From the IMG/VR virus record IMGVR_UViG_3300005660_000003, positions 10,261 to 74,260 of that record: a stretch of DNA of 64,000 bases; one strand, written 5' to 3'. Source of the stretch: a virus. Lineage: Duplodnaviria > Heunggongvirae > Uroviricota > Caudoviricetes. Made by a program: the position numbers and the translations under genes. A model generated the notes under the pieces. It made no database searches and was not told where the DNA came from. It saw only the letters and a list, made by a program, of their open reading frames with translations. Within the stretch, counting starts at the first letter, position 1; each line of letters begins with the position of its first letter. Shown piece after piece: positions 10,042 through 40,283 of the stretch.

Positions 10042-10596
10042 TTATGTATTTTTTTCCACTAATTTTTGAATATCCCCACAAGTGGAAATATTCTTCATAA
10101 TATATTTAAATCCTTTATACACTGAATCCTGATTTAAAATCTTCAACAATAAAAACTGCTCATATTTTGTAGCTAGCAGAAATACAAGTCCTGCCAATAT
10201 GGTGCGTTCTCTATTATGCACAGTAAATATATTATCTTCAAAATTCATTTTACCTAATAGGTCTTCTGCTAATTTTTTAGTAGCCTCATCTTTTGATATA
10301 AACATGTCCACAAGTGTTTTAGGATTTATTTCGTTAGAAAACGTAGTAAATTTTCTTTCATATGTACTTTTTATGCAGAAAAGATTTCCAACTGTAATTT
10401 TGGGATCATACTTTAGGGCGGTTGATATTAATGCGTTAGTAAAAGTTCTATCTACATAATATGTAAAACGCACATCAGGCTGATGATAATCAACTATCTT
10501 TATCTTTTCATTATATTTTTCTTCCATTAGATCTTCAATGTAAGTTTTTTCACCAGCACCCAAATTTATAAACGAACAAGCAAAGGCTTTACCCAA
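10042..10596 (-). CDS. hypothetical protein
   Basis: 184-aa ORF. Confidence 0.45.
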   Translation of the reverse strand: MGKAFACSFINLGAGEKTYIEDLMEEKYNEKIKIVDYHQPDVRFTYYVDRTFTNALISTALKYDPKITVGNLFCIKSTYERKFTTFSNEINPKTLVDMFISKDEATKKLAEDLLGKMNFEDNIFTVHNRERTILAGLVFLLATKYEQFLLLKILNQDSVYKGFKYIMKNISTCGDIQKLVEKNT

Positions 10597-18431: not shown

Positions 18432-18465
18432 TATAAATATCCCATAAGTAGTTTAAAATAAAGAT

Positions 18466-18538
18466 TGCGGCACACGGGATTTGAACCCGCAACCTCCGGT
18501 TTGGAAAACCAGTACTCTGCCAATTGAGTTAATGTCGC
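18466..18538 (-). tRNA. tRNA, probable Gly (anticodon UCC)
   Basis: Hand-folded cloverleaf: acceptor 7 bp with one A-C mismatch; D arm actc/aattggcag/gagt; anticodon stem ctggt/accgg; loop tttccaa; T arm gcggg-ttcaaat-cccgt. No encoded CCA. Confidence 0.55.
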
Positions 18539-18649
18539 ATAAATAGTTAGATGGTTCCTTAAGTGGACTTGTCTCGAATGATCTAGGCCGGTATCCAGAT
18601 CACCGTCTATATCTAACTAAGTATAAACCTCAGAATCATTCTTCGGTTT

Positions 18650-21986: not shown

Positions 21987-22070
21987 TCCGCAAGACAGGA
22001 GTCGAACCTGCACGGGTTGTTAACCCAATAGCTTCTAACGCTACCGTGACTACCATTTCACCACTCGCGG
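21987..22070 (-). tRNA. tRNA-Leu (anticodon UAG), type II with long variable arm
   Basis: Hand fold: acceptor ccgcgag/cttgcgg; D arm gtga-aatggtag-tcac; anticodon stem gtagc/gctat with loop gtTAGaa; variable arm gggtt-aac-aaccc; T arm gcagg-ttcgact-cctgt. Length 84 nt. Confidence 0.6.
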
Positions 22071-24512: not shown

Positions 24513-27500
24513 CTAAATTGAACAGGCCCCACCAGAACACCCTGACTCAACAGTCATATCGTCGGTGCCGTCTGGGGTTACTAAGTAATACAGGTTTTTA
24601 ATACCCAATTTGTGTGAGTATATCATTTGTTTAATTATTTCAGATAGTGGAATTTTACCATTAGGATAATTATTATAATCCATAAAAAGATTTAGAGATA
24701 TACTCATACATATCCATCTTTGCATTGATGCATAGATTTTAATATGATGGAGCTGATCTACCATTTCAAATGCTGTTGTGTAATAATTCTTATTTTTAGG
24801 CCAAGACGGAGGAATAACCTTAATTGCCCCAGAGCCAGATTTTTTAGTAGTCAAAAAACTACGTATTGCATCTACCCCATTTGTAGAATTTTGCACAACC
24901 GAAGACGATTCTACCGGCATTTCTGCAAGTAATGTAGAATTCATAAGACCGAACTCTAATATTCTTCCACGTAATTTTTCCCAATCCATTTTAGGTTTAT
25001 CTAAAAACTTTAACTCTTTAGCTGTGTCAATTGGTAAAATTCCATCTGCCCATTTAGTTTTTTCAAACCAAGGCATTCTTTCACCCAACTCTTCTGCTAT
25101 TTTACAAGAGGCACTTATCATATAATAGGAAACTTTTTCAAAAATATCAGAGGTTTCCTGCAGTACTTCTTGAGATGTAAGCTTTATCTTTTTGCTAGCC
25201 ATATAGGCCGCATAATTAGTGATTCCTATCCCTAGCGACCTATAGTTCTTACAAAAGTTTTCTGCTGCCGGGAATCTATACTCTTGAGAATCTATGACTT
25301 CGTGCAATATTCTAGATATAATATAGCACACACTTTCATACTCTTCTTCTTTTGTTGTAAGAACATTAACAGCAGATAGCACGCACACACCAATTAATCC
25401 ATCAGGGTCCTGTAGGTGTTGTACTGGTTTAAGTGGGTGAACGACCTCTTGGCAATTTCCAGTTAAAATCCCATTAAATACAGCTTTATGTTCTAACGGC
25501 TCATTTAAACAATACGTATCATCTTTTCTACCGTCGTCCGTTATATTGGCTACCGTAATAAATTGAGATGCCTCTCTCTGTGGTAATCTTTGATTAAATT
25601 TTAATCTATTTGTTTTAAACCCCATCAATGAAAGCTTATATAAATCATTTGAATTTATTAATAGTCTTTTTGTTTCCTTGCATGAGAATAATTTATACCC
25701 GCCACGACCATCTGGTAAAAGTCTGTCTCCAGTTTCTACTCCATTTACAATTTTACTATTTATACCAAGGGTTTGAAGCATTAATTGTAATTCATAAATA
25801 AATTCTTGCTCTATAGAAGAAACCTGTATTGACTCATTTGTTCCATTTCTAGCTATAGTTCCATCTCCATCTAAATAACCAGCTAACCAAGCGAGTTTTA
25901 TTTTAACCGAAGAGTTAGTTGGTATTTTAAATTTCATAGGCATATCTTCATGCATTACAACATTTCTTCTACCAGAGGTGTCTTCTCCTCTATCTTTTTT
26001 AATATCTAGAAACTTAACAAGATTTTTCTTTTCTCCATATAGAGATATTCTTCTTGCCGATCCAGTCTCATGTGTTCCGTCAGCACAAAATAGTCCGTGG
26101 GTATATGGATATTTAAAATCTTCTGATCCATCTACAATAGGTAGATCAAATTTACATAGCTTGTCACCCACCTTAAGATCTTTAGTTTCTTTAATGGTTA
26201 ACTTACCCTTAACTTGATCTGCATATGACTCAACAATATACCACTTGTGGTATGGTGTGCATTCTAAATATTTACCATCTGAAAGTATAACTTTAACAAG
26301 TTTTTTATTAACCCCAGTTTTTACAACTTGCGTTTTTGACCATTGTTTACCATTCCAAACAGATACAATTTCATTTTCTAGTTCACGTATTGGAATGTGA
26401 CCATCTTTCGTTAGTAACAATGTCTCTGGAGCAACACACAAATTACTAGTAGTAACTCTTTCTTTAAAAGTACTGTGCTCATTCACATTATCTATGTGCA
26501 TAATATATATACGGCCAGTTTCAAGTCTTTCTTTTGCTATTTGGTTTAATAACTCAGATGCCTTTATTCTCTTTGAGAACTTTCCCCCTTTTTCTTCTGC
26601 TCTTGTGTAGATCTCATCAAATTCGGGTAGTCCAAAACTATTATAAACCTCGGGAAATTCATGATAACTCATTAAGGTAACGTCCTCACCCTTCATAAAT
26701 CTATTATAAAGAATTCCACTAATCTGTATACAATAATCCATCCATCTTACCTTATTTTCATCCGCCCCCTTATTATTCTTATAAGTGAGAATATCCTCTA
26801 TCTCTGGATGAAAGAATGGGAAATTTATTGTAGCAGAACCTTTTCTAATTCCTCCTTGTGAGGTTGAATTAACAGAACTTTCAAGTAGCTTTGCAAACGG
26901 GCGAATACCTGTATGTTTAACTTCCCCGTTTCTAATAGGGGCATTTCTAGCCCGGATAGATCCCATGTCTAAGCCAATTCCAGACCTATCTGCTACATAC
27001 TGCCCGACTATATGACTAGACGAAAAGATGGAGTTTAATGTATCATCAATTTTAATTAATATACAGCTTGAGTAATTCTTTAGTTTAGTTCTTACGCCAG
27101 CTAAAATGGGGGTAGGGAGATTTATTTTAAACAAAGAAAGATAATCATAAGTTTTCTTTATTAAGTCTAATCTATTCTCGTAACTCTTAAATAAAACCAT
27201 TGGAATTAATATAAAAGCGAATTGGGGAGTTTCATATATTTTCCCCGTTGATCTATCCTTAATTAGATACTTATCACACATTTGCTGAATACCAGCGTGG
27301 GTAAACATAAAGTCTCTATCATGTTTAACCATTTTATTTATTTTGTGTATTTCAGACTCTGAGTATTCCTTTAGTATGTCCTCATTGTAAATAGTCTTAT
27401 TTTTTCTAAGATGGTCATACAACCTAGGTGGGTCACTTTCTCCCCAGACTTGTTTTCTTAGGGCGTATGTCCGCAGCCTCCCGGCAACATATTGATAATT

Positions 27501-27719
27501 AGGATTATCTAATGTTATTAGGTCATACGCCGATCTTACTAATATCTCTTGTATATCAGAGGTTTTCATCTTATTTGATATTGAAATCTTAGCGTTCATG
27601 GCTACATCACTAGCTGATACGTCACTTAAATCGCTACATGCCCACTCAAGGACTTTGTTAATTTTTTCAGCATTAAATTCTTCTAATTTACCATTTCTCT
27701 TTTTTATTTGTAAAGTCAC
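24513..27719 (-). CDS. nrdA: ribonucleotide reductase class Ia alpha subunit containing an intein
   Basis: N-terminal ATP-cone, then SNL-C...N-CQEV. The extein is about 740 aa. The 328-aa insert has Hint blocks and LAGLIDADG motifs. Confidence 0.9.
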   Translation of the reverse strand: MTLQIKKRNGKLEEFNAEKINKVLEWACSDLSDVSASDVAMNAKISISNKMKTSDIQEILVRSAYDLITLDNPNYQYVAGRLRTYALRKQVWGESDPPRLYDHLRKNKTIYNEDILKEYSESEIHKINKMVKHDRDFMFTHAGIQQMCDKYLIKDRSTGKIYETPQFAFILIPMVLFKSYENRLDLIKKTYDYLSLFKINLPTPILAGVRTKLKNYSSCILIKIDDTLNSIFSSSHIVGQYVADRSGIGLDMGSIRARNAPIRNGEVKHTGIRPFAKLLESSVNSTSQGGIRKGSATINFPFFHPEIEDILTYKNNKGADENKVRWMDYCIQISGILYNRFMKGEDVTLMSYHEFPEVYNSFGLPEFDEIYTRAEEKGGKFSKRIKASELLNQIAKERLETGRIYIMHIDNVNEHSTFKERVTTSNLCVAPETLLLTKDGHIPIRELENEIVSVWNGKQWSKTQVVKTGVNKKLVKVILSDGKYLECTPYHKWYIVESYADQVKGKLTIKETKDLKVGDKLCKFDLPIVDGSEDFKYPYTHGLFCADGTHETGSARRISLYGEKKNLVKFLDIKKDRGEDTSGRRNVVMHEDMPMKFKIPTNSSVKIKLAWLAGYLDGDGTIARNGTNESIQVSSIEQEFIYELQLMLQTLGINSKIVNGVETGDRLLPDGRGGYKLFSCKETKRLLINSNDLYKLSLMGFKTNRLKFNQRLPQREASQFITVANITDDGRKDDTYCLNEPLEHKAVFNGILTGNCQEVVHPLKPVQHLQDPDGLIGVCVLSAVNVLTTKEEEYESVCYIISRILHEVIDSQEYRFPAAENFCKNYRSLGIGITNYAAYMASKKIKLTSQEVLQETSDIFEKVSYYMISASCKIAEELGERMPWFEKTKWADGILPIDTAKELKFLDKPKMDWEKLRGRILEFGLMNSTLLAEMPVESSSVVQNSTNGVDAIRSFLTTKKSGSGAIKVIPPSWPKNKNYYTTAFEMVDQLHHIKIYASMQRWICMSISLNLFMDYNNYPNGKIPLSEIIKQMIYSHKLGIKNLYYLVTPDGTDDMTVESGCSGGACSI
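25455..26438 (-). mobile_element. intein (residues 428-755 of NrdA) with LAGLIDADG homing-endonuclease domain, inserted at the thiyl-radical Cys (SNL|C)
   Basis: Starts CVAPETLLLTKDG (block A). TPYH (block B). HGLFCADGT and LAGYLDGDGT motifs. Ends ...TGN followed by +1 Cys. Confidence 0.8.
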
Positions 27720-33446: not shown

Positions 33447-33479
33447 AAGATGAATCTTTTAATTATTGGAGAAAGAAAT

Positions 33480-34172
33480 ATGGGAAAAATCCTAAGAATA
33501 TTTATCATTTTATTGTTATTTTGTTCAGTTTCTGTGGGCGACCTAATACCACGTTACCTAAACATTCCACCTTACGGAAGGATAGATTTACAAACATACT
33601 CTAGACAATACAGAGACGGATCAGCTTGTCAGTGTGACATGTGCCTTTCAATATATCCTTATCAAAACACTTATTTCGCACAACAGAATCAGCCTCAAAT
33701 TAAAGCTTCTGAGGAATTACCACTTAACGTGGGGCAAGAAGCCACACCTATGGAGCTAGTTAATGCTGGAATTAAAGTCGCCAGACTAAAGTCTAGCGAT
33801 ACCTTTTGTGACATTGGTGCTGGGGATGCCCGTTGGGTAATAGCTGCAGTAAAAAGTTCTGGGTGTACAGGTATAGGTGTAGAATACGATAAAAGATTAG
33901 TAAAATTAGCCCGTAAAAATGTGGAAGATGCTGGCTTATCTGGTAAGATCACCATTATTGAAGGAGATGCTCGCAAATACGATTACTCAAAAATTACTGT
34001 AATATCCGTGCATTTATATGATGATCTACTCAATGAACTAAAAAACTTAGGGGCTTTTAATTATGCACAAACCATTATAGCTCCATACCATGACATACAA
34101 GGATTAGACATGAAGCAGGTTGATGGTATCTGGATTTATAATCGGCCAACAAAGGCAAATGCCCGCATATAA
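33480..34172 (+). CDS. secreted class I SAM-dependent methyltransferase
   Basis: Signal peptide MGKILRIFIILLLFCSVSVG. SAM-binding DIGAGDARW...GIGVEYD...IEGDARK. Confidence 0.6.
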   Translation: MGKILRIFIILLLFCSVSVGDLIPRYLNIPPYGRIDLQTYSRQYRDGSACQCDMCLSIYPYQNTYFAQQNQPQIKASEELPLNVGQEATPMELVNAGIKVARLKSSDTFCDIGAGDARWVIAAVKSSGCTGIGVEYDKRLVKLARKNVEDAGLSGKITIIEGDARKYDYSKITVISVHLYDDLLNELKNLGAFNYAQTIIAPYHDIQGLDMKQVDGIWIYNRPTKANARI

Positions 34173-34254: not shown

Positions 34255-34294
34255 CGATATTCTTTTTAACACTTAAATAAAGGTAATTATAATA

Positions 34295-34813
34295 ATGGCA
34301 ACATTTTCTCGTGGTACGTACGGAACATCCGATAATGGTGGTGGTGGAGTAACTCTTGGTAATGGTACAGTAAGTGCAATACAAGGGCAGTCAGCAATTG
34401 CTGGAGAAGCTGGCACTTCTGTTTTACCTTCTGGGAGCACGAACAAAACCTATTCTTCTGGTACACTTGATTACAATAGAACCGGTGGCTTTGTTCAGCA
34501 TTCAGTTTTGGTCGAAGACGTAAACGGAGTTGCTGCTAATGATTTCTATATGACTAACAATGGGTCAATTGCTGATGAACAACACTCAAGTAAGTATGCT
34601 GTCAAACGATCTATTACTAGCTATGATCAGTACGGGCGACCAACTTATGGTGCTACTGACGGTACGCGTTATGGTCTTTACACAACTAGCGGAACCCCAG
34701 TAGATAAGCCAATTGACGCCGCAAAAGATCCATATGGAACACCGGCGACATTTGTTACCCTTGATGGATTAGCACCAGTGGTTCATTCATTTTCAGCACT
34801 AACTTCTTACTAG
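34295..34813 (+). CDS. Gly/Thr/Ser-rich hypothetical protein (possible structural or surface protein)
   Basis: 172-aa ORF of low-complexity composition. Confidence 0.45.
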   Translation: MATFSRGTYGTSDNGGGGVTLGNGTVSAIQGQSAIAGEAGTSVLPSGSTNKTYSSGTLDYNRTGGFVQHSVLVEDVNGVAANDFYMTNNGSIADEQHSSKYAVKRSITSYDQYGRPTYGATDGTRYGLYTTSGTPVDKPIDAAKDPYGTPATFVTLDGLAPVVHSFSALTSY

Positions 34814-34822
34814 GATAAGACT

Positions 34823-35071
34823 ATGAACTTTTTAACAAAACTTACAAGTGTATTTACAAAAAATGTACCAGATACTTCGGATTCTGGCAAAGTAGACACA
34901 ACGGATGTAGCAAAAGTATTGCGGACATCTGTCTTCATTGCTCTATCTTCTGGTCTAGCTTACTTATTAAACGCTATAGACCCAACCGTTTTTGGAAGCT
35001 ACAGTCCACTTGTTGTTGTAGCTGGAACAGCATTAATGGAATTTTTCACAAAATTGTCAAAGGGAAACTAA
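34823..35071 (+). CDS. small membrane protein
   Basis: 82 aa with a C-terminal TM segment. Confidence 0.4.
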   Translation: MNFLTKLTSVFTKNVPDTSDSGKVDTTDVAKVLRTSVFIALSSGLAYLLNAIDPTVFGSYSPLVVVAGTALMEFFTKLSKGN

Positions 35072-35395
35072 ATGTTAGAACCGCTTAGTCAGTATTGGAT
35101 TATACCAATTGGAATAGTAATATTGCTTGGGCCGAAAGTTTATAGCTATTTTAAAGATAGTGTATCAAATATTAAACTACCTTCTTTTGCAAAGGGTAAA
35201 GTGGAAAGCGTGGATCAAGTTGGTGTAGTTAATAAAGATGTTGAAGCCGTACAATGGTTGGCAAATCGTGCCGTAGACGTTGGTGATAAAGACCTAATTT
35301 TGGAGTTAGAAAATGTTAATAAGAAATTTTTTCATATTCACTGCGATATGCGTAAGCCAAATATTAGTAATAGCTCAAACGAGCCCGCAAAGTAA
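35072..35395 (+). CDS. small membrane protein
   Basis: 107 aa with an N-terminal TM segment. Confidence 0.4.
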   Translation: MLEPLSQYWIIPIGIVILLGPKVYSYFKDSVSNIKLPSFAKGKVESVDQVGVVNKDVEAVQWLANRAVDVGDKDLILELENVNKKFFHIHCDMRKPNISNSSNEPAK

Positions 35396-35741
35396 CATAG
35401 CTGACTCTATAAAAAATGTTGCTAACACTGAGAATATAAGTAATATTGAGCTTGAAAAGGCTTACATTGCTTACATGGGTGCGTATCAATATGGAAAACT
35501 ACTTGACTTTGAAGGCTGTGAAGACTTCGCTGAATTATTTGACAAGATGCGGCTCGTTACCACTCGCCTACAATATGTTAGGAATGCTAAACTGAGTGAT
35601 GCGGCCTATGCAGAATTAAAAGAATTCGAAAAAGATGATAAGGGAAACCCCATTCCTTTTGATTCCGAGCATCAGGCTGCCTTTATGGAGAAGGCTTATC
35701 AAGTAGCGGAAGGTCTAAAGGCAGCAATTGAACGTGAATAA
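35313..35741 (+). CDS. secreted hypothetical protein (start uncertain, overlaps upstream ORF)
   Basis: Signal-peptide-like N-terminus. 142 aa. Confidence 0.35.
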   Translation: MLIRNFFIFTAICVSQILVIAQTSPQSNIADSIKNVANTENISNIELEKAYIAYMGAYQYGKLLDFEGCEDFAELFDKMRLVTTRLQYVRNAKLSDAAYAELKEFEKDDKGNPIPFDSEHQAAFMEKAYQVAEGLKAAIERE

Positions 35742-36798
35742 AACAAGGCATTATGTTTATAAAATAACAAATAAGATTAATGGTAAGTTTTATATTGGTA
35801 TTAAATCTTCTAGGCTTAACTTTTTAGATACTAATTATTATGGAAGTGGGAGGTTAATTAAAGCTTCTATTAAAAAACACGGTAAAGAAAATTTCTTAAG
35901 AGAAGTTCTTTTTGAATTTAGAACTCGTGAAGAAGTCTTAAGTAAAGAAAAAGAATTGGTTACCAAAGATTTAGTTAGTAGCCATAATTGTTACAATATA
36001 ACAGTTGGTGGTGGAGGATTTACCAATCTCAATTATCGTTCACTTCCTATAAAGAGTCTTGATTTTATGGGTAAAATAACTTACTATAAGTCTATGCTTG
36101 ATGCCTCACTTTTAGTTAAGGGATGTAATAGAACTGGCGTGCGTAATGCTATTATTGGTAAAGCAAATACCCATAATAATTTATATTGGTCTAAAGCTGA
36201 TAAAGACTTTTTAATCAAGAAAAATAGAAACTCTATTACCCCGTGCTTTTCACTAGATGAAAATAGTAGTAAAATTTACTATAATTCATTTTCAGAAGCC
36301 TCAAAGGCTACAGGGGTAGCTTGTAGTATAATCAGGAGATGTGTGGTTTCTGGTAAGGGCACTGGTGGCGGATTTAATTGGTATAAAACTACATCAAAAT
36401 TAGACTCATCTAGTTTCCGTGGAAAAAATTATTTAACTAGAAAACCTTGTATTTCTATAGATAAGACTGGTGCAAAGAAATATTATTCTTCTATTACTGA
36501 AGCTAGTAAGCAAACTGGTATTTGTAATACAAATATTTGTTTATGCTTAAAATTAAAAGCACGTTCTGCTGGTGGATTATCTTGGTATTATACCGATTCT
36601 GAAACAAATAAATTTAATGGAGTCGGTCCCCGCACCAAGTGTTACGAAAGTACAGATTCTAGAGGAAATAAAAAACGTTATAAATCCTTAAAAGAAGCTG
36701 CAAAAAGCAACAATTACAGTGTAGATTATATCTCTAAAGCTGCTAAAAATAATTTATTAGTTGCTGGATTAAAATGGGAGAGAATAAATGCTAAATAA
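35728..36798 (+). CDS. GIY-YIG homing endonuclease with C-terminal repeated helix-turn-helix (NUMOD/IENR-like) DNA-binding modules
   Basis: HYVYKITNKINGKFYIGIKS is GIY-(10)-YIG. Repeats YY(N/S)S(F/I)(S/T)EASK.TG. Overlaps the intein-containing gene start by 11 nt. Confidence 0.8.
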   Translation: MNVNKTRHYVYKITNKINGKFYIGIKSSRLNFLDTNYYGSGRLIKASIKKHGKENFLREVLFEFRTREEVLSKEKELVTKDLVSSHNCYNITVGGGGFTNLNYRSLPIKSLDFMGKITYYKSMLDASLLVKGCNRTGVRNAIIGKANTHNNLYWSKADKDFLIKKNRNSITPCFSLDENSSKIYYNSFSEASKATGVACSIIRRCVVSGKGTGGGFNWYKTTSKLDSSSFRGKNYLTRKPCISIDKTGAKKYYSSITEASKQTGICNTNICLCLKLKARSAGGLSWYYTDSETNKFNGVGPRTKCYESTDSRGNKKRYKSLKEAAKSNNYSVDYISKAAKNNLLVAGLKWERINAK

Positions 36799-38773
36799 TA
36801 CTGAGGGGTGGATTCACGACCCACGAGCCATAGAAGAGGTGATGTCTTCTCTTGAGCAACCATTCTTTTTTCAAGCGGCTGACGTTTTACAAGCTACTGG
36901 TAAGGGTAAATCAGCTTACCTTTATGAGAATTTTAAAAAGTTAAATATTCCATATCCCAAGCCACTCCAAGCTGGCGAAGGAGACTGTTTTAATCCGTCT
37001 TCATTAGTTACTATGGCTGACGGCTCTAAGAAATCTATCATTGATATTAAGGTTGGTGATTTAGTAATTTCTGCAATTGGTAATATTAAAAAGGTTTTAT
37101 CGGTATTTAATAAACCGTTTACTGGTAAAATGATTAAAATAACTACTCAGAGTTACCATAAACCATTGATTTGCACACCTGACCATAAATTAGTTCAATG
37201 TGTTAGTAAAAATACCACTAGATGGAATCGAGCGGATCTATTAGATCTTAAAGATTATATTCTAGTTTCAAAAATGCCTAACATAAATAATGAAAAAATA
37301 TACGATTTATCACAAATTTGTCCGAAGTCTGAGAACGTAGGTACTGATCAAATTAAAGCAATTAGATCTAATAAATTAGCTAACAGATTTATTAAGAATT
37401 CAGAAAAATTATTTTGGTTATTCGGTATGTATTTAGCTGAGGGAAGTTGTGACTTAGGTGGTGACAAATTACCAAAAAGAATTACATTTAACCTATCTAA
37501 TGATGAAATTTTAATAGCTGAAAAAATTAAACAATACATTAAAGATGTTTTTAATCTTGATGCTATTATTTGTAGTGTCCCATCGAAACCAAGTGTTTTG
37601 TACGTAAGAATTGGTAGTTATTTATTTGCTAATTTTGTTAAACATTTTTGTACCGGAAACGTTTATTCTAAATCATTTAGTGATGACTTTAAAATAGAAT
37701 CATTTTCTAATAAGTTAGCATTGCTTGAGGGATGGATGGATGGTGATGGATGGGAAGATAGAAAAGGCGTAACCGTAAGTGAAAATTTAGCTTATAATTT
37801 TTTTGATATAGCTAATTCTTTGGGCATGAATGTTAGAATTGATCATCGTAAAGCATACAAACAAAGTAAAAAAAGTTATTCGGTCGATATTAATTGTAGT
37901 GTTAAAACTTATGAAAAAGCTAAAGTTTTTACGAAAACTAGACTAAGTTATAATTTTATCACTAAGGTAGGTAAAGCTGCTAAAATAAAAAATGTAGAAT
38001 ATATTGAGCCAGAAACTGACAAGGTTTATTGTATTGAGGTAGAGGGTGATAACTCATTTATCTGTGACGGTTATGGTGTTCATAACTGCGTCTCTCACGC
38101 CACATCTTTGGCACTCGACACTTTATCTGTTACTGAAATTGTAAATGGCGATAGAGAAGTTTGGGTTGCAAGATCCGCTAGCGAATACGTTTATCATGTT
38201 TCTAGGATGGTAATCGGTAAAGGTAGATTTGGCTCCGGCGGAGGGTCCGTGAATGCTTATGCCGCTAAGGGTCTTCAGGAATATGGTAGTTTACGACGAA
38301 CCCAATATAACTCTGTAGATTTAACTAAATACTCTGAGAAAAGAGCGTATTCTTGGGGTCGTGGTTCTATTCCTAAAGATCTTTATGACATAGCTAAGGC
38401 CCAGAATATTGGTAAATTTGCAGCTATTAAAAATTTTAGTGATGCGTGCGACAGTCTTTATAATGGATATCCAATTGTTGTTGCGTCAAGCCAAGGGTTT
38501 TCTTCTACGAGAGATAAGGATGGTTTTTGTAGACCTCAGGGTAGCTGGATGCATTCCATGAGTGTACTTGGATATAAAGACGGTAGTCGTCCCGGTGTTG
38601 CAATTTGTAATTCTTGGCCCAGCTTTTTACCCGGAGAAAATGAGTTTGGGTTACCACCATCGTGTTTCTTCTGCGATGCTTCTGTCTTTGATAATATGTG
38701 TAAAATGGGTGACACTTTTTCATTAGCCGGATTTAACGGTTTTAAACCACGTGCCGACGCTCGTGTAATTTAA
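36788..38773 (+). CDS. papain-like (C1 family) cysteine peptidase interrupted by an intein
   Basis: The 294-aa extein has Q-x5-C (QAGEGD|C), ...HSMSVLGYKDGS... and NSWP...GENEFG, matching papain Q19/C25/H159/N175 plus NSWG...GENGY. Confidence 0.7.
   Translation: MLNNTEGWIHDPRAIEEVMSSLEQPFFFQAADVLQATGKGKSAYLYENFKKLNIPYPKPLQAGEGDCFNPSSLVTMADGSKKSIIDIKVGDLVISAIGNIKKVLSVFNKPFTGKMIKITTQSYHKPLICTPDHKLVQCVSKNTTRWNRADLLDLKDYILVSKMPNINNEKIYDLSQICPKSENVGTDQIKAIRSNKLANRFIKNSEKLFWLFGMYLAEGSCDLGGDKLPKRITFNLSNDEILIAEKIKQYIKDVFNLDAIICSVPSKPSVLYVRIGSYLFANFVKHFCTGNVYSKSFSDDFKIESFSNKLALLEGWMDGDGWEDRKGVTVSENLAYNFFDIANSLGMNVRIDHRKAYKQSKKSYSVDINCSVKTYEKAKVFTKTRLSYNFITKVGKAAKIKNVEYIEPETDKVYCIEVEGDNSFICDGYGVHNCVSHATSLALDTLSVTEIVNGDREVWVARSASEYVYHVSRMVIGKGRFGSGGGSVNAYAAKGLQEYGSLRRTQYNSVDLTKYSEKRAYSWGRGSIPKDLYDIAKAQNIGKFAAIKNFSDACDSLYNGYPIVVASSQGFSSTRDKDGFCRPQGSWMHSMSVLGYKDGSRPGVAICNSWPSFLPGENEFGLPPSCFFCDASVFDNMCKMGDTFSLAGFNGFKPRADARVI
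36986..38086 (+). mobile_element. intein (367 aa) with LAGLIDADG endonuclease domain, inserted immediately before the catalytic Cys of the peptidase
   Basis: CFNPSSLVTMADG (block A). CTPDH (block B). LFGMYLAEGS and LLEGWMDGDGW. Ends GVHN|C. Confidence 0.8.
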
Positions 38774-38785
38774 GGATAAATCTTC

Positions 38786-39379
38786 ATGAAGTATAGAATT
38801 GTAATCTTGTTAGTTCTTTTTTTTGTTTGGCAAAATATGGGTGGCCTTGGACCTCTAAGTCCCCCATTTATTGCTGATCTATCCGCCCAAGAATTAGAAG
38901 CTAAAGTTATAGCTGCTCTTTTGGTTTTATCTGATGATGGGCCTACGCCCATCCCCGTAGTTATACCAGAAGTTAAAATTATTACACCTCTGGAAGAGCC
39001 TAGAGAGGTAGTCGAGATCGAAGATCTCGCCACTATTCCCGGTCGCAGGCCAAGGGTAATTTTACTTACAGACACTAAGCGTTGTTCTCCATGTGTGCTT
39101 ATGGATAGAACAATAGTTAATGTCCTTAAGCAAGATAACTTTAAATCCGCTGGGTGGACAGTTGGCAGGGATAATATTAACACTTTAGAAGTAGTAGACA
39201 TAAATAAAGACAAAGAAAAGTTTTGGGAGTATTCTACCCTACTCTCTAATAGTAATTTGAACTATAACTCTACTATTCCAGTTTTTGTTAGAGTAAATAA
39301 AAAGGGAGTTATAGATAAGATTAGCGGACCCATGACACTAGAACAATTTATCACCTTTAGTACAAAGTTTGAAGAGTAA
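38786..39379 (+). CDS. secreted thioredoxin-fold protein (CSPC motif)
   Basis: Signal peptide. C-x-x-C and a thioredoxin-like beta-alpha-beta context. Confidence 0.5.
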   Translation: MKYRIVILLVLFFVWQNMGGLGPLSPPFIADLSAQELEAKVIAALLVLSDDGPTPIPVVIPEVKIITPLEEPREVVEIEDLATIPGRRPRVILLTDTKRCSPCVLMDRTIVNVLKQDNFKSAGWTVGRDNINTLEVVDINKDKEKFWEYSTLLSNSNLNYNSTIPVFVRVNKKGVIDKISGPMTLEQFITFSTKFEE

Positions 39380-39671
39380 CATGGAATTTGGAATAAATTC
39401 AATCACCGAACTAATAATAAAAAAAGAACTTATAATTGAAGACGGTGTCAAAATTATTTGTGGCGATAAGGTGCGGCCAATATTCTTTTCAGATGGGGAG
39501 AATATAGTTATTGATTTTGAGGCCCCTTTTGTCTACTTGATTATCAGCAAGTTGGGCCCAGTTACTATATTTGAAATTAAAAGAAAAATTAATAAGATTA
39601 TAATCGGGCCCAAAACCTACACGATAGATATCGCAGACTTCCCTAATATAACTAGGAATATAAAAACATGA
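39369..39671 (+). CDS. hypothetical protein
   Basis: 100-aa ORF. Confidence 0.4.
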   Translation: MKSNMEFGINSITELIIKKELIIEDGVKIICGDKVRPIFFSDGENIVIDFEAPFVYLIISKLGPVTIFEIKRKINKIIIGPKTYTIDIADFPNITRNIKT

Positions 39672-39958
39672 TGGGCGAACTATTATATTCTGAATATACT
39701 CAAGAAAACCCGACTATTGTTGGTGCTAAGGGTGAAATTAAAAGAAGATTGCGACCCGGTCTAAGGCGTGAAAAATTCATAAGTATCGGCAACACCGCCT
39801 ATGGCGAAGGGCTACCCATTTCTAAGGGTAGAGATGCTTGTGAGCGAGAGATGCTTAATCGCGTTAGTGGGTCTCTTGGGTTCATTGAGTATTTCTTACT
39901 AAAGGCAATAATCATGTGGATTATTCGTAAGATACTTGACTGGAAGTTTCCAACGTAA
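39668..39958 (+). CDS. hypothetical protein
   Basis: 96-aa ORF. Confidence 0.4.
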   Translation: MMGELLYSEYTQENPTIVGAKGEIKRRLRPGLRREKFISIGNTAYGEGLPISKGRDACEREMLNRVSGSLGFIEYFLLKAIIMWIIRKILDWKFPT

Positions 39959-40283
39959 ACATAATTGCTTCGTCATTTTCATCTAAATCGGCCATCTCTA
40001 GATGGCTTTTTTTCGTATATGACACATTGTCAATGATCTGAAACTCAAAAGAACGCTTAGCTTTAATAGCAAAAATTTTTCTACTAAAATTAGAGTATAT
40101 AGATTTATAAAGATATGAATTGAAATTCCCTCGATCTTTATCAAAATTCTTATTGCACACTAATGCCGTGTAGCAAATATCAGACAAGATCTCATCTTCT
40201 TCAATATTCAGGCCCTTTAGGGCTTGCACTTGTTTAGAGAATCTTTTCATCAGTGATTCGGTCTCTATTTTACCAATCTTCAT
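39921..40283 (-). CDS. hypothetical protein
   Basis: 120-aa ORF. Confidence 0.4.
   Translation of the reverse strand: MKIGKIETESLMKRFSKQVQALKGLNIEEDEILSDICYTALVCNKNFDKDRGNFNSYLYKSIYSNFSRKIFAIKAKRSFEFQIIDNVSYTKKSHLEMADLDENDEAIMFTLETSSQVSYE

Follow-up and report, generated by a model that had tools for sequence, protein, structure and literature searches.

Adjacent GIY-YIG and LAGLIDADG homing elements, probably acquired separately, at a papain-like peptidase gene of an uncultured phage

When two homing elements of different classes lie side by side at one phage gene, do they depend on each other, or did each arrive on its own? The question is raised by a locus in a Caudoviricetes genome (IMG/VR record IMGVR_UViG_3300005660_000003, positions 10,261 to 74,260; this whole stretch of 64,000 nucleotides [nt] is referred to below as the window), where a free-standing GIY-YIG homing endonuclease gene precedes a peptidase gene that carries an intein with a LAGLIDADG endonuclease domain. 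We consider it likely that these are two separately acquired selfish elements, a Seg-like GIY-YIG gene at the junction between the peptidase gene and its upstream neighbor and a LAGLIDADG intein placed before the codon for Cys67 of the peptidase. The features of the locus and its states in relatives are listed in Table 1.

Table 1. Features of the locus in the window and states of the locus in relatives (metagenomic contigs, L; aa, amino acids; GC, G+C content)
Feature	Position or contigs	Strand	Details
Free-standing GIY-YIG homing endonuclease gene	35728..36798	+	Pfam and PHROG matches; missing from syntenic relatives
GIY-YIG catalytic domain, aa 5-93 (RHYVYKITN ... KFYIGIKS ... YYGSG ... E72 ... 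CYN88)	35746..36012	+	
Four NUMOD-like helix-turn-helix repeats	36043-36189, 36238-36381, 36442-36585, 36634-36777	+	Self-alignment, Pfam
N-extein, aa 1-66, ending ...PLQAGEGD	36788..36985	+	GC 0.43
Intein, 367 aa (aa 67-433), with LAGLIDADG endonuclease domain	36986..38086	+	GC 0.291
C-extein, beginning with invariant Cys (+1 splicing residue); His (WMHSM, 38546-38560), Asn-Ser-Trp (38606-38617)	38087..38773	+	GC 0.418
Upstream gene, 142 aa, N-terminal hydrophobic segment, no family	35313..35741	+	Left border of endonuclease insertion
Probable transcription unit with both elements	34266..40007	+	Promoter-like site 34266-34293, terminator-like hairpin 39990-40007
Neither element	L001; L002-L004; L005-L007; L020/L021; L022		Five lineages
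155-aa mini-intein, endonuclease gene absent	L008-L010		
GIY-YIG gene upstream, intein absent	L011		280 aa, 45% identical, three repeats, same junction
GIY-YIG gene downstream, intein absent	L023/L024		288 aa, 46% identical, between peptidase gene and next gene
Both elements	Window, L012-L014		Identical sequences

The open reading frame (ORF) of the endonuclease encodes 356 aa from a TTG at 35728, or 354 aa from the GTG at 35734 that is used in public gene calls; no ATG occurs in frame close to this end of the ORF. It is matched by Pfam SegE_GIY-YIG (PF19835; 27.7 bits versus a cutoff of 25), by I-HmuI_NUMOD-like (PF22083; 39.9 bits versus a cutoff of 27), and by the "homing endonuclease" family PHROG 314 (E value, 1.5e-31), with NUMOD1 slightly under its cutoff; a sequence search of the PDB gave no match. 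The C-terminal 250 aa hold the repeats, ~50 aa each (aa 104-152, 169-216, 237-284, and 301-348), which share the pattern x-S-x-D-x-x-G-x-x-x-Y-x-S-x-x-E-A ... W, and this NUMOD-like array is presumed to be the DNA-binding region. Homologous endonuclease genes adjoin the peptidase gene in two relatives, L011 and L023; their products have three repeats, and the window protein is ~68 aa longer. Among the three peptidase-associated endonucleases, the catalytic domain is 61 to 71% identical, and Y9 (in YVY), Y20-I21-G22, E72, and N88 are invariant. By position, we take E72 and N88 to be the equivalents of E75 and N90 of I-TevI. The window contains no other GIY-YIG gene.

The interrupted gene (36788-38773, +) encodes a 661-aa precursor with a spliced extein of 294 aa. 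The ATG at 36788 is its true start, because residues 7 to 25 (G7, W8, and P25) are conserved across homologs; the NCBI annotation (protein P0140) has a shorter precursor of 643 aa that begins at Met19. In close homologs a Gln lies 6 residues ahead of the Cys (Q61 is invariant in alignment A2). Because a Cys/His/Asn triad is invariant across 34 extein homologs (C67, H222, and N241-S242-W243) and an AlphaFold model of the extein (predicted local distance difference test [pLDDT] score, 92.7) is matched by Foldseek to xylellain (E value, 4e-11) and cathepsins, the extein is predicted to be a papain-fold (clan CA) cysteine peptidase. Peptidase_C39_2 was the only curated family to respond to the spliced extein, at 16.7 bits versus a cutoff of 24 (E value, 0.011), and neither PHROG nor a PDB sequence search gave a match; with its papain fold and triad, the peptidase falls outside any described family. 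Neither a single peptidase sequence nor an alignment found any match in scans of IMG/VR, and one metagenome scan returned two loci; the wide alignment, A1, was too divergent to serve in pattern scans.

The intein is inserted in frame directly before the codon of the invariant Cys67, the peptidase nucleophile, and this residue doubles as the +1 nucleophile for the predicted splicing. The other splicing residues of a class 1 intein are present as Cys1 (CFNPSS), TPDH (37175-37186), and a terminal HN (GVHN, followed by the +1 Cys), and Pfam Intein_splicing (PF14890) scores 44.6 bits versus a cutoff of 35.8. The LAGLIDADG motifs read LFGMYLAEGS (37418-37447) and LLEGWMDGDGW (37721-37753); the Pfam LAGLIDADG_3 score is 20 bits, under the cutoff of 22.5. 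Within these motifs, G..LAEG and GW..GDG are invariant in four members of the intein lineage that share 25 to 38% identity, and a structural model (mean pLDDT, 70; mostly 76 to 92 in the blocks of the endonuclease core) matches PI-SceI (E value, 1e-14), the TliVMA intein, and I-DmoI. As far as motifs and model indicate, the LAGLIDADG domain is apparently intact. A protein search with the precursor found matches to other inteins only. Orthologs read ...GDCVSH... continuously across the insertion site, and most of the 34 matches are intein-free. A literature search for an intein at the catalytic cysteine of a phage papain-like protein turned up no case, which is weak evidence of absence.

A sequence-only reading of this DNA had described, at 35728-38086, a freestanding GIY-YIG endonuclease with C-terminal NUMOD-like repeats, its 11-nt overlap with the start of the intein-bearing peptidase gene, and a LAGLIDADG endonuclease inside the peptidase intein. 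All three descriptions hold: the first is borne out by Pfam, PHROG, and four self-aligning repeats, the second by an endonuclease stop (36796-36798) that lies 11 nt beyond the peptidase ATG at 36788, and the third by both motifs, their lineage-wide invariance, and the model matches. The elements are not nested, as that reading had it, but adjacent, with a gap of 187 nt from the end of the endonuclease ORF to the intein. At its other end, the endonuclease gene starts within its neighbor, overlapping the stop of the upstream gene (35739-35741), and the insert between that stop and the peptidase start amounts to 1046 nt. GC is 0.305 in the endonuclease gene and 0.354 over the window; the endonuclease and the intein are compositionally foreign, because both have a GC of ~30%, versus 0.42-0.43 in the exteins. 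A 7-nt direct repeat, GAATAAA, has one copy at each end of the insert (35736-35742 and 36782-36788) and resembles the ancestral stop/start junction (GGAATAATG) of endonuclease-free loci. It was given no weight as a trace of insertion, since L011 lacks it and AT-rich DNA could plausibly contain it by chance.

The strongest case for separate acquisition comes from relatives, which were found with the spliced extein as the query. The closest thirteen orthologs are 62 to 76% identical to it and twelve of them are 291 to 297 aa long; more distant orthologs reach 400 aa and have other extensions. On the contigs of the closest orthologs, gene order is kept over >15 genes, and orthologs of the upstream gene are 55 to 65% identical in L001, L002, L006, and L008. 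The GIY-YIG gene is absent from L001-L010 and L020-L022, and in endonuclease-free loci the stop of the upstream gene overlaps the peptidase ATG or falls ≤4 nt from it. Every combination of presence and absence is seen among the syntenic relatives, which supports independent variation of the two elements and repeated invasion of the locus. The extein tree places the window and L011 as sister lineages, with L023 in another clade, and so implies at least two insertions of the endonuclease gene. The C-exteins of L015, which has an intein, and L020, which has none, are 92% identical at the protein level. The presence/absence check in syntenic metagenomic relatives that the sequence-only reading had proposed thus finds the GIY-YIG gene to be sporadic and absent in five lineages, so it is not a conserved fixture. 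That reading had also held that two independent homing systems target the same locus. Independence and recurrent invasion stand, whereas targeting is something that we infer only from association.

The same codon has attracted more than one intein. The lineage of the window intein is shared with P0141-P0143 (27 to 35% identical; in L017, L018:6001-7905, and L019:2431-4323), inteins that sit right before the putative catalytic Cys of very divergent papain-like proteins, on unrelated contigs and with no adjoining GIY-YIG gene. To judge from these positions, the lineage seems to be specialized on the nucleophile codon of the whole peptidase superfamily. A second full-length lineage, of the L015/P0009 type and with its own LAGLIDADG domain, occurs at the same codon (L015:1-1257, where the contig begins inside the intein). 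The mini-intein of L008-L010 (L008:2056-3411) shares the C-terminal block YVYCLEV.xDHRFQAN with the L015 intein and appears to be an endonuclease-deleted derivative of that lineage. L019 carries a resolvase gene and a TnpB/Cas12f-like gene nearby. Elsewhere in the window, the ribonucleotide reductase (RNR) large subunit (24513-27719, -; 1068 aa) carries another LAGLIDADG intein (Pfam LAGLIDADG_3, 52 bits), which is unrelated in sequence to the peptidase intein. The L001 RNR has 1069 aa and a LAGLIDADG match, and the L006 RNR has 739 aa without one; in L006 a DUF723 gene adjoins the RNR gene.

What might the GIY-YIG enzyme act on? Its catalytic domain has at least 336 related loci in IMG/VR. 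Among 94 other loci retrieved via that domain (IMG/VR and GTDB genomes), none encodes the presumed DNA-binding array of repeats, and none has the peptidase gene at a distance of up to 4 kb; the array was found only in the three peptidase-adjacent endonuclease genes. Because the DNA-binding region appears dedicated in this way and the genes occupy either flank of the peptidase gene, we infer that, as with the T4 Seg enzymes (PMC2988022), the target probably lies inside the peptidase gene or at its edge. Homing would begin with the co-infection of a cell by a carrier and a relative without the GIY-YIG gene. If active as predicted, the enzyme would use its four helix-turn-helix repeats to bind a long, degenerate site, most likely within the peptidase gene or at its border, and introduce a double-strand break, and repair from the carrier genome would copy the gene and flanking DNA into the relative. 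With the intein so close, it would usually be carried along, and its own endonuclease could separately cut intein-free alleles at the Cys-codon site. The two elements may thus be co-mobilized, and they may cooperate or interfere.

Several observations weigh against two separately acquired elements of this kind. The generic GIY-YIG model, PF01541, gives only 20.1 bits versus a cutoff of 22.6, and the canonical Arg has no confident placement in the alignment of the three sequences, where R27 varies among the homologs. The target site is not deducible: when nine alleles are compared, no 24-nt stretch has more than 13 invariant positions. No trace of recent homing or transfer emerged from the identity gradient or the flanking-gene comparison: in a sliding comparison of the window with L011, identity across the peptidase gene shows no trend with proximity to the endonuclease, and the downstream genes of L011 are no nearer to those of the window than other relatives' are. 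The window and L011 endonucleases are only ~45% identical, versus 76% for the adjoining peptidases, and one old insertion followed by vertical descent can, on these comparisons, explain the upstream copy in both. The sample is also small, about ten lineages, all of them metagenomic contigs. In the comparison of nine alleles for nucleotide conservation, those of endonuclease-carrying genomes show nothing distinctive; a conserved stretch does not stand out because relatives differ at nearly every synonymous position.

The score under the Pfam cutoff and the unplaced Arg, along with the non-ATG start codon, would suit a decaying relic, in which the ORF is intact, the enzyme is inactive, and the gene, late in its homing cycle, is heading for loss. 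The DNA-binding part does evolve fast, with a ratio of nonsynonymous to synonymous substitution rates (dN/dS) of 0.36 to 0.68, although on saturated dS. We nevertheless regard decay as highly unlikely. Uninterrupted ORFs of 280 to 356 aa persist in three lineages that are ~45% identical, the GIY and YIG tyrosines, E72, and N88 have not changed, and selection on the catalytic domain is purifying: dN/dS is about 0.17 to 0.32 among the three homologs (about 0.2 overall).

The sister relationship of the window and L011, with no co-conversion gradient between them, can also be read as the mark of a resident or domesticated nuclease, inserted once in their common ancestor, vertically inherited since, and no longer homing. 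Retention of such a gene may reflect translation signals that its 3' end provides to the peptidase gene, or an ability to keep rival phages out. The ORF overlaps both neighbors, and in both genomes its last codons contain a purine-rich GGGAGAG and the peptidase ATG; retention through embedded expression signals has precedents in T4 (PMC2988022). An identical genotype in three metagenomes (~13 kb around the locus is 100% identical in three Joint Genome Institute metagenomes) fits a settled gene as well. This explanation is unlikely in our view. The homolog on the opposite flank, in a different clade, needs at least one further insertion, the low GC marks the endonuclease gene as foreign, and purifying selection acts on the catalytic domain in three lineages, though the last point would fit a domesticated function too.

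A further possibility turns on the distance between the elements, which falls within the typical range for co-conversion. In collaborative homing or immunity, the GIY-YIG enzyme would cut at or near the Cys67 codon, and the intein would ride along and shield the carrier, or the elements would compete for the site. Trans-homing of an adjoining splicing element is known from mobE and the nrdB intron (PMC2790892), and cleavage of an intron insertion site by a free-standing endonuclease has been described for F-CphI at psbA and in T3/T7-like phages (cited in PMC2790892, PMC10448857). The presence of one endonuclease family on either flank of a single gene would fit a target inside the peptidase gene. 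As in mobE/nrdB and F-CphI/psbA, a free-standing endonuclease gene adjoins, at co-conversion distance, a gene with a self-splicing element. Unlike in those systems, the element is an intein rather than a group I intron, and whereas their introns are endonuclease-less or defunct, the window intein keeps an apparently intact endonuclease and so would not need a helper. The endonucleases of L011 and L023 adjoin intein-free alleles, and intein or mini-intein alleles without the endonuclease occur in L008-L010, L018, and L019. The nucleotides around the Cys codon are not unusually conserved, and the intein-free carriers, L011 and L023, have no distinctive changes there. Collaborative or trans-homing is defined by dependence between the elements, which the sequenced alleles do not support for the window pair, because all four presence/absence combinations occur. 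We therefore see little chance of collaboration at this locus, and it is likewise quite improbable that the intein at Cys67 is both a passenger of endonuclease-driven conversion and a shield against cutting near that codon. If true, this would be the first case in which a free-standing endonuclease drives the trans-homing of an intein, and the four allele states would record an ongoing contest or alliance of two selfish elements over one active-site codon.

Two separately acquired elements, our preferred reading, make the arrangement a fresh example of a known phenomenon, matching the T4 seg genes, mobE/nrdB trans-homing, and homing endonuclease gene (HEG) islands. The seg and mob genes of T4 are promoterless cassettes between conserved genes; they commonly overlap the ORF before them, and their products cleave the neighboring gene (PMC2988022). 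Like T4 SegA-SegG, the window endonuclease combines an N-terminal GIY-YIG domain (SegE_GIY-YIG) with a modular C-terminal DNA-binding region, and its gene lies between conserved genes, co-oriented with them, overlaps the upstream ORF, is sporadic in relatives, and has no evident promoter. In the search for a dedicated promoter, sigma-70-like matches numbered 24, versus 23.5 expected, and the host may be a member of the Bacteroidota, which has other promoters. No RNA hairpin that would sequester the endonuclease start, as in T4, was found (minimum free energy, -9 kcal/mol; z = 0.09). Unlike in the Seg enzymes, the DNA-binding region consists of three or four tandem NUMOD-like repeats, an array encountered only next to the peptidase gene, and the window endonuclease has a non-ATG start and belongs to an uncultured phage lineage.

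In HEG islands, a single conserved phage gene is surrounded by a cluster of homing endonuclease genes of different classes (Barth et al. 2023, PMC10448857). The window has a GIY-YIG and a LAGLIDADG element within 1.3 kb at one conserved gene, and in different genomes homologous GIY-YIG genes occupy either flank of it. The bracketed gene differs from those of known islands in encoding a papain-like peptidase and not a recognized essential replication or structural protein, and no single genome among the relatives compared has both flanks occupied. A small HEG island is nonetheless the best-fitting description of the locus. The intein resembles PI-SceI, PI-PfuI, and the TliVMA intein in its Hint domain with blocks A, B, F, and G, its inserted two-motif LAGLIDADG domain, and its position at an active-site residue of the host protein; it differs in that its host is a papain-like peptidase, which it interrupts directly before the nucleophile Cys.

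Both elements lie in a same-strand block of nine genes (+; ~34295-39958) with minus-strand genes on both sides. The promoter-like site and the terminator-like hairpin that frame the block weakly suggest that it is probably one transcription unit holding both elements; the promoter consensus scan was overall at chance level. The wider window looks like part of a large uncultured phage, with RNR genes (one of them intein-bearing), AAA ATPases, glycosyltransferases, and two tRNAs (Gly-TCC, 18465-18539, -; Leu-TAG, 21987-22070, -). Among 50,697 deposited phage genomes there were no relatives at the DNA level, and the sole match was a 50-nt GIY-YIG motif. The NCBI contig with the same sequence, which encodes P0140, was binned into a Chitinophagaceae metagenome-assembled genome, and this label on a phage-like contig may be a hint of the host's identity. 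The small proteins encoded around the peptidase in the probable transcription unit (34295-35741 and 38786-39958) belong to no family, and several start with hydrophobic signal- or transmembrane-like segments; a downstream 197-aa protein has a weak glutaredoxin-like match. Twin-arginine-like leaders on some distant peptidase homologs hint that the function of the module is envelope directed. Just 5' of the operon, at the divergent junction, is a 240-aa S-adenosylmethionine-methyltransferase-like ORF (Methyltransf_25; 33450-34172, +). No methyltransferase gene was called at the equivalent position in L001-L008, L020, L022, or L023, and it looks like another lineage-specific insertion.

The locus leaves the current understanding of homing endonucleases unchanged, and its value is that of a clean natural example in which two classes of homing element converge on one phage gene. 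The list of intein hosts gains a peptidase of the papain fold in which the interruption falls precisely at the nucleophile Cys, and a GIY-YIG subfamily has been identified whose repeat-array DNA-binding domain appears to be dedicated to one gene. Published work on interference between the homing of neighboring inteins shows that the question of cooperation versus interference is a live one (PMC10643990). Sequences are available for all four states of presence and absence, as well as for a derivative reduced to a mini-intein and for a second intein lineage that shares the insertion codon. The locus is therefore a compact test bed for asking whether neighboring selfish elements aid each other's spread, through co-conversion or trans-homing, or interfere with it.

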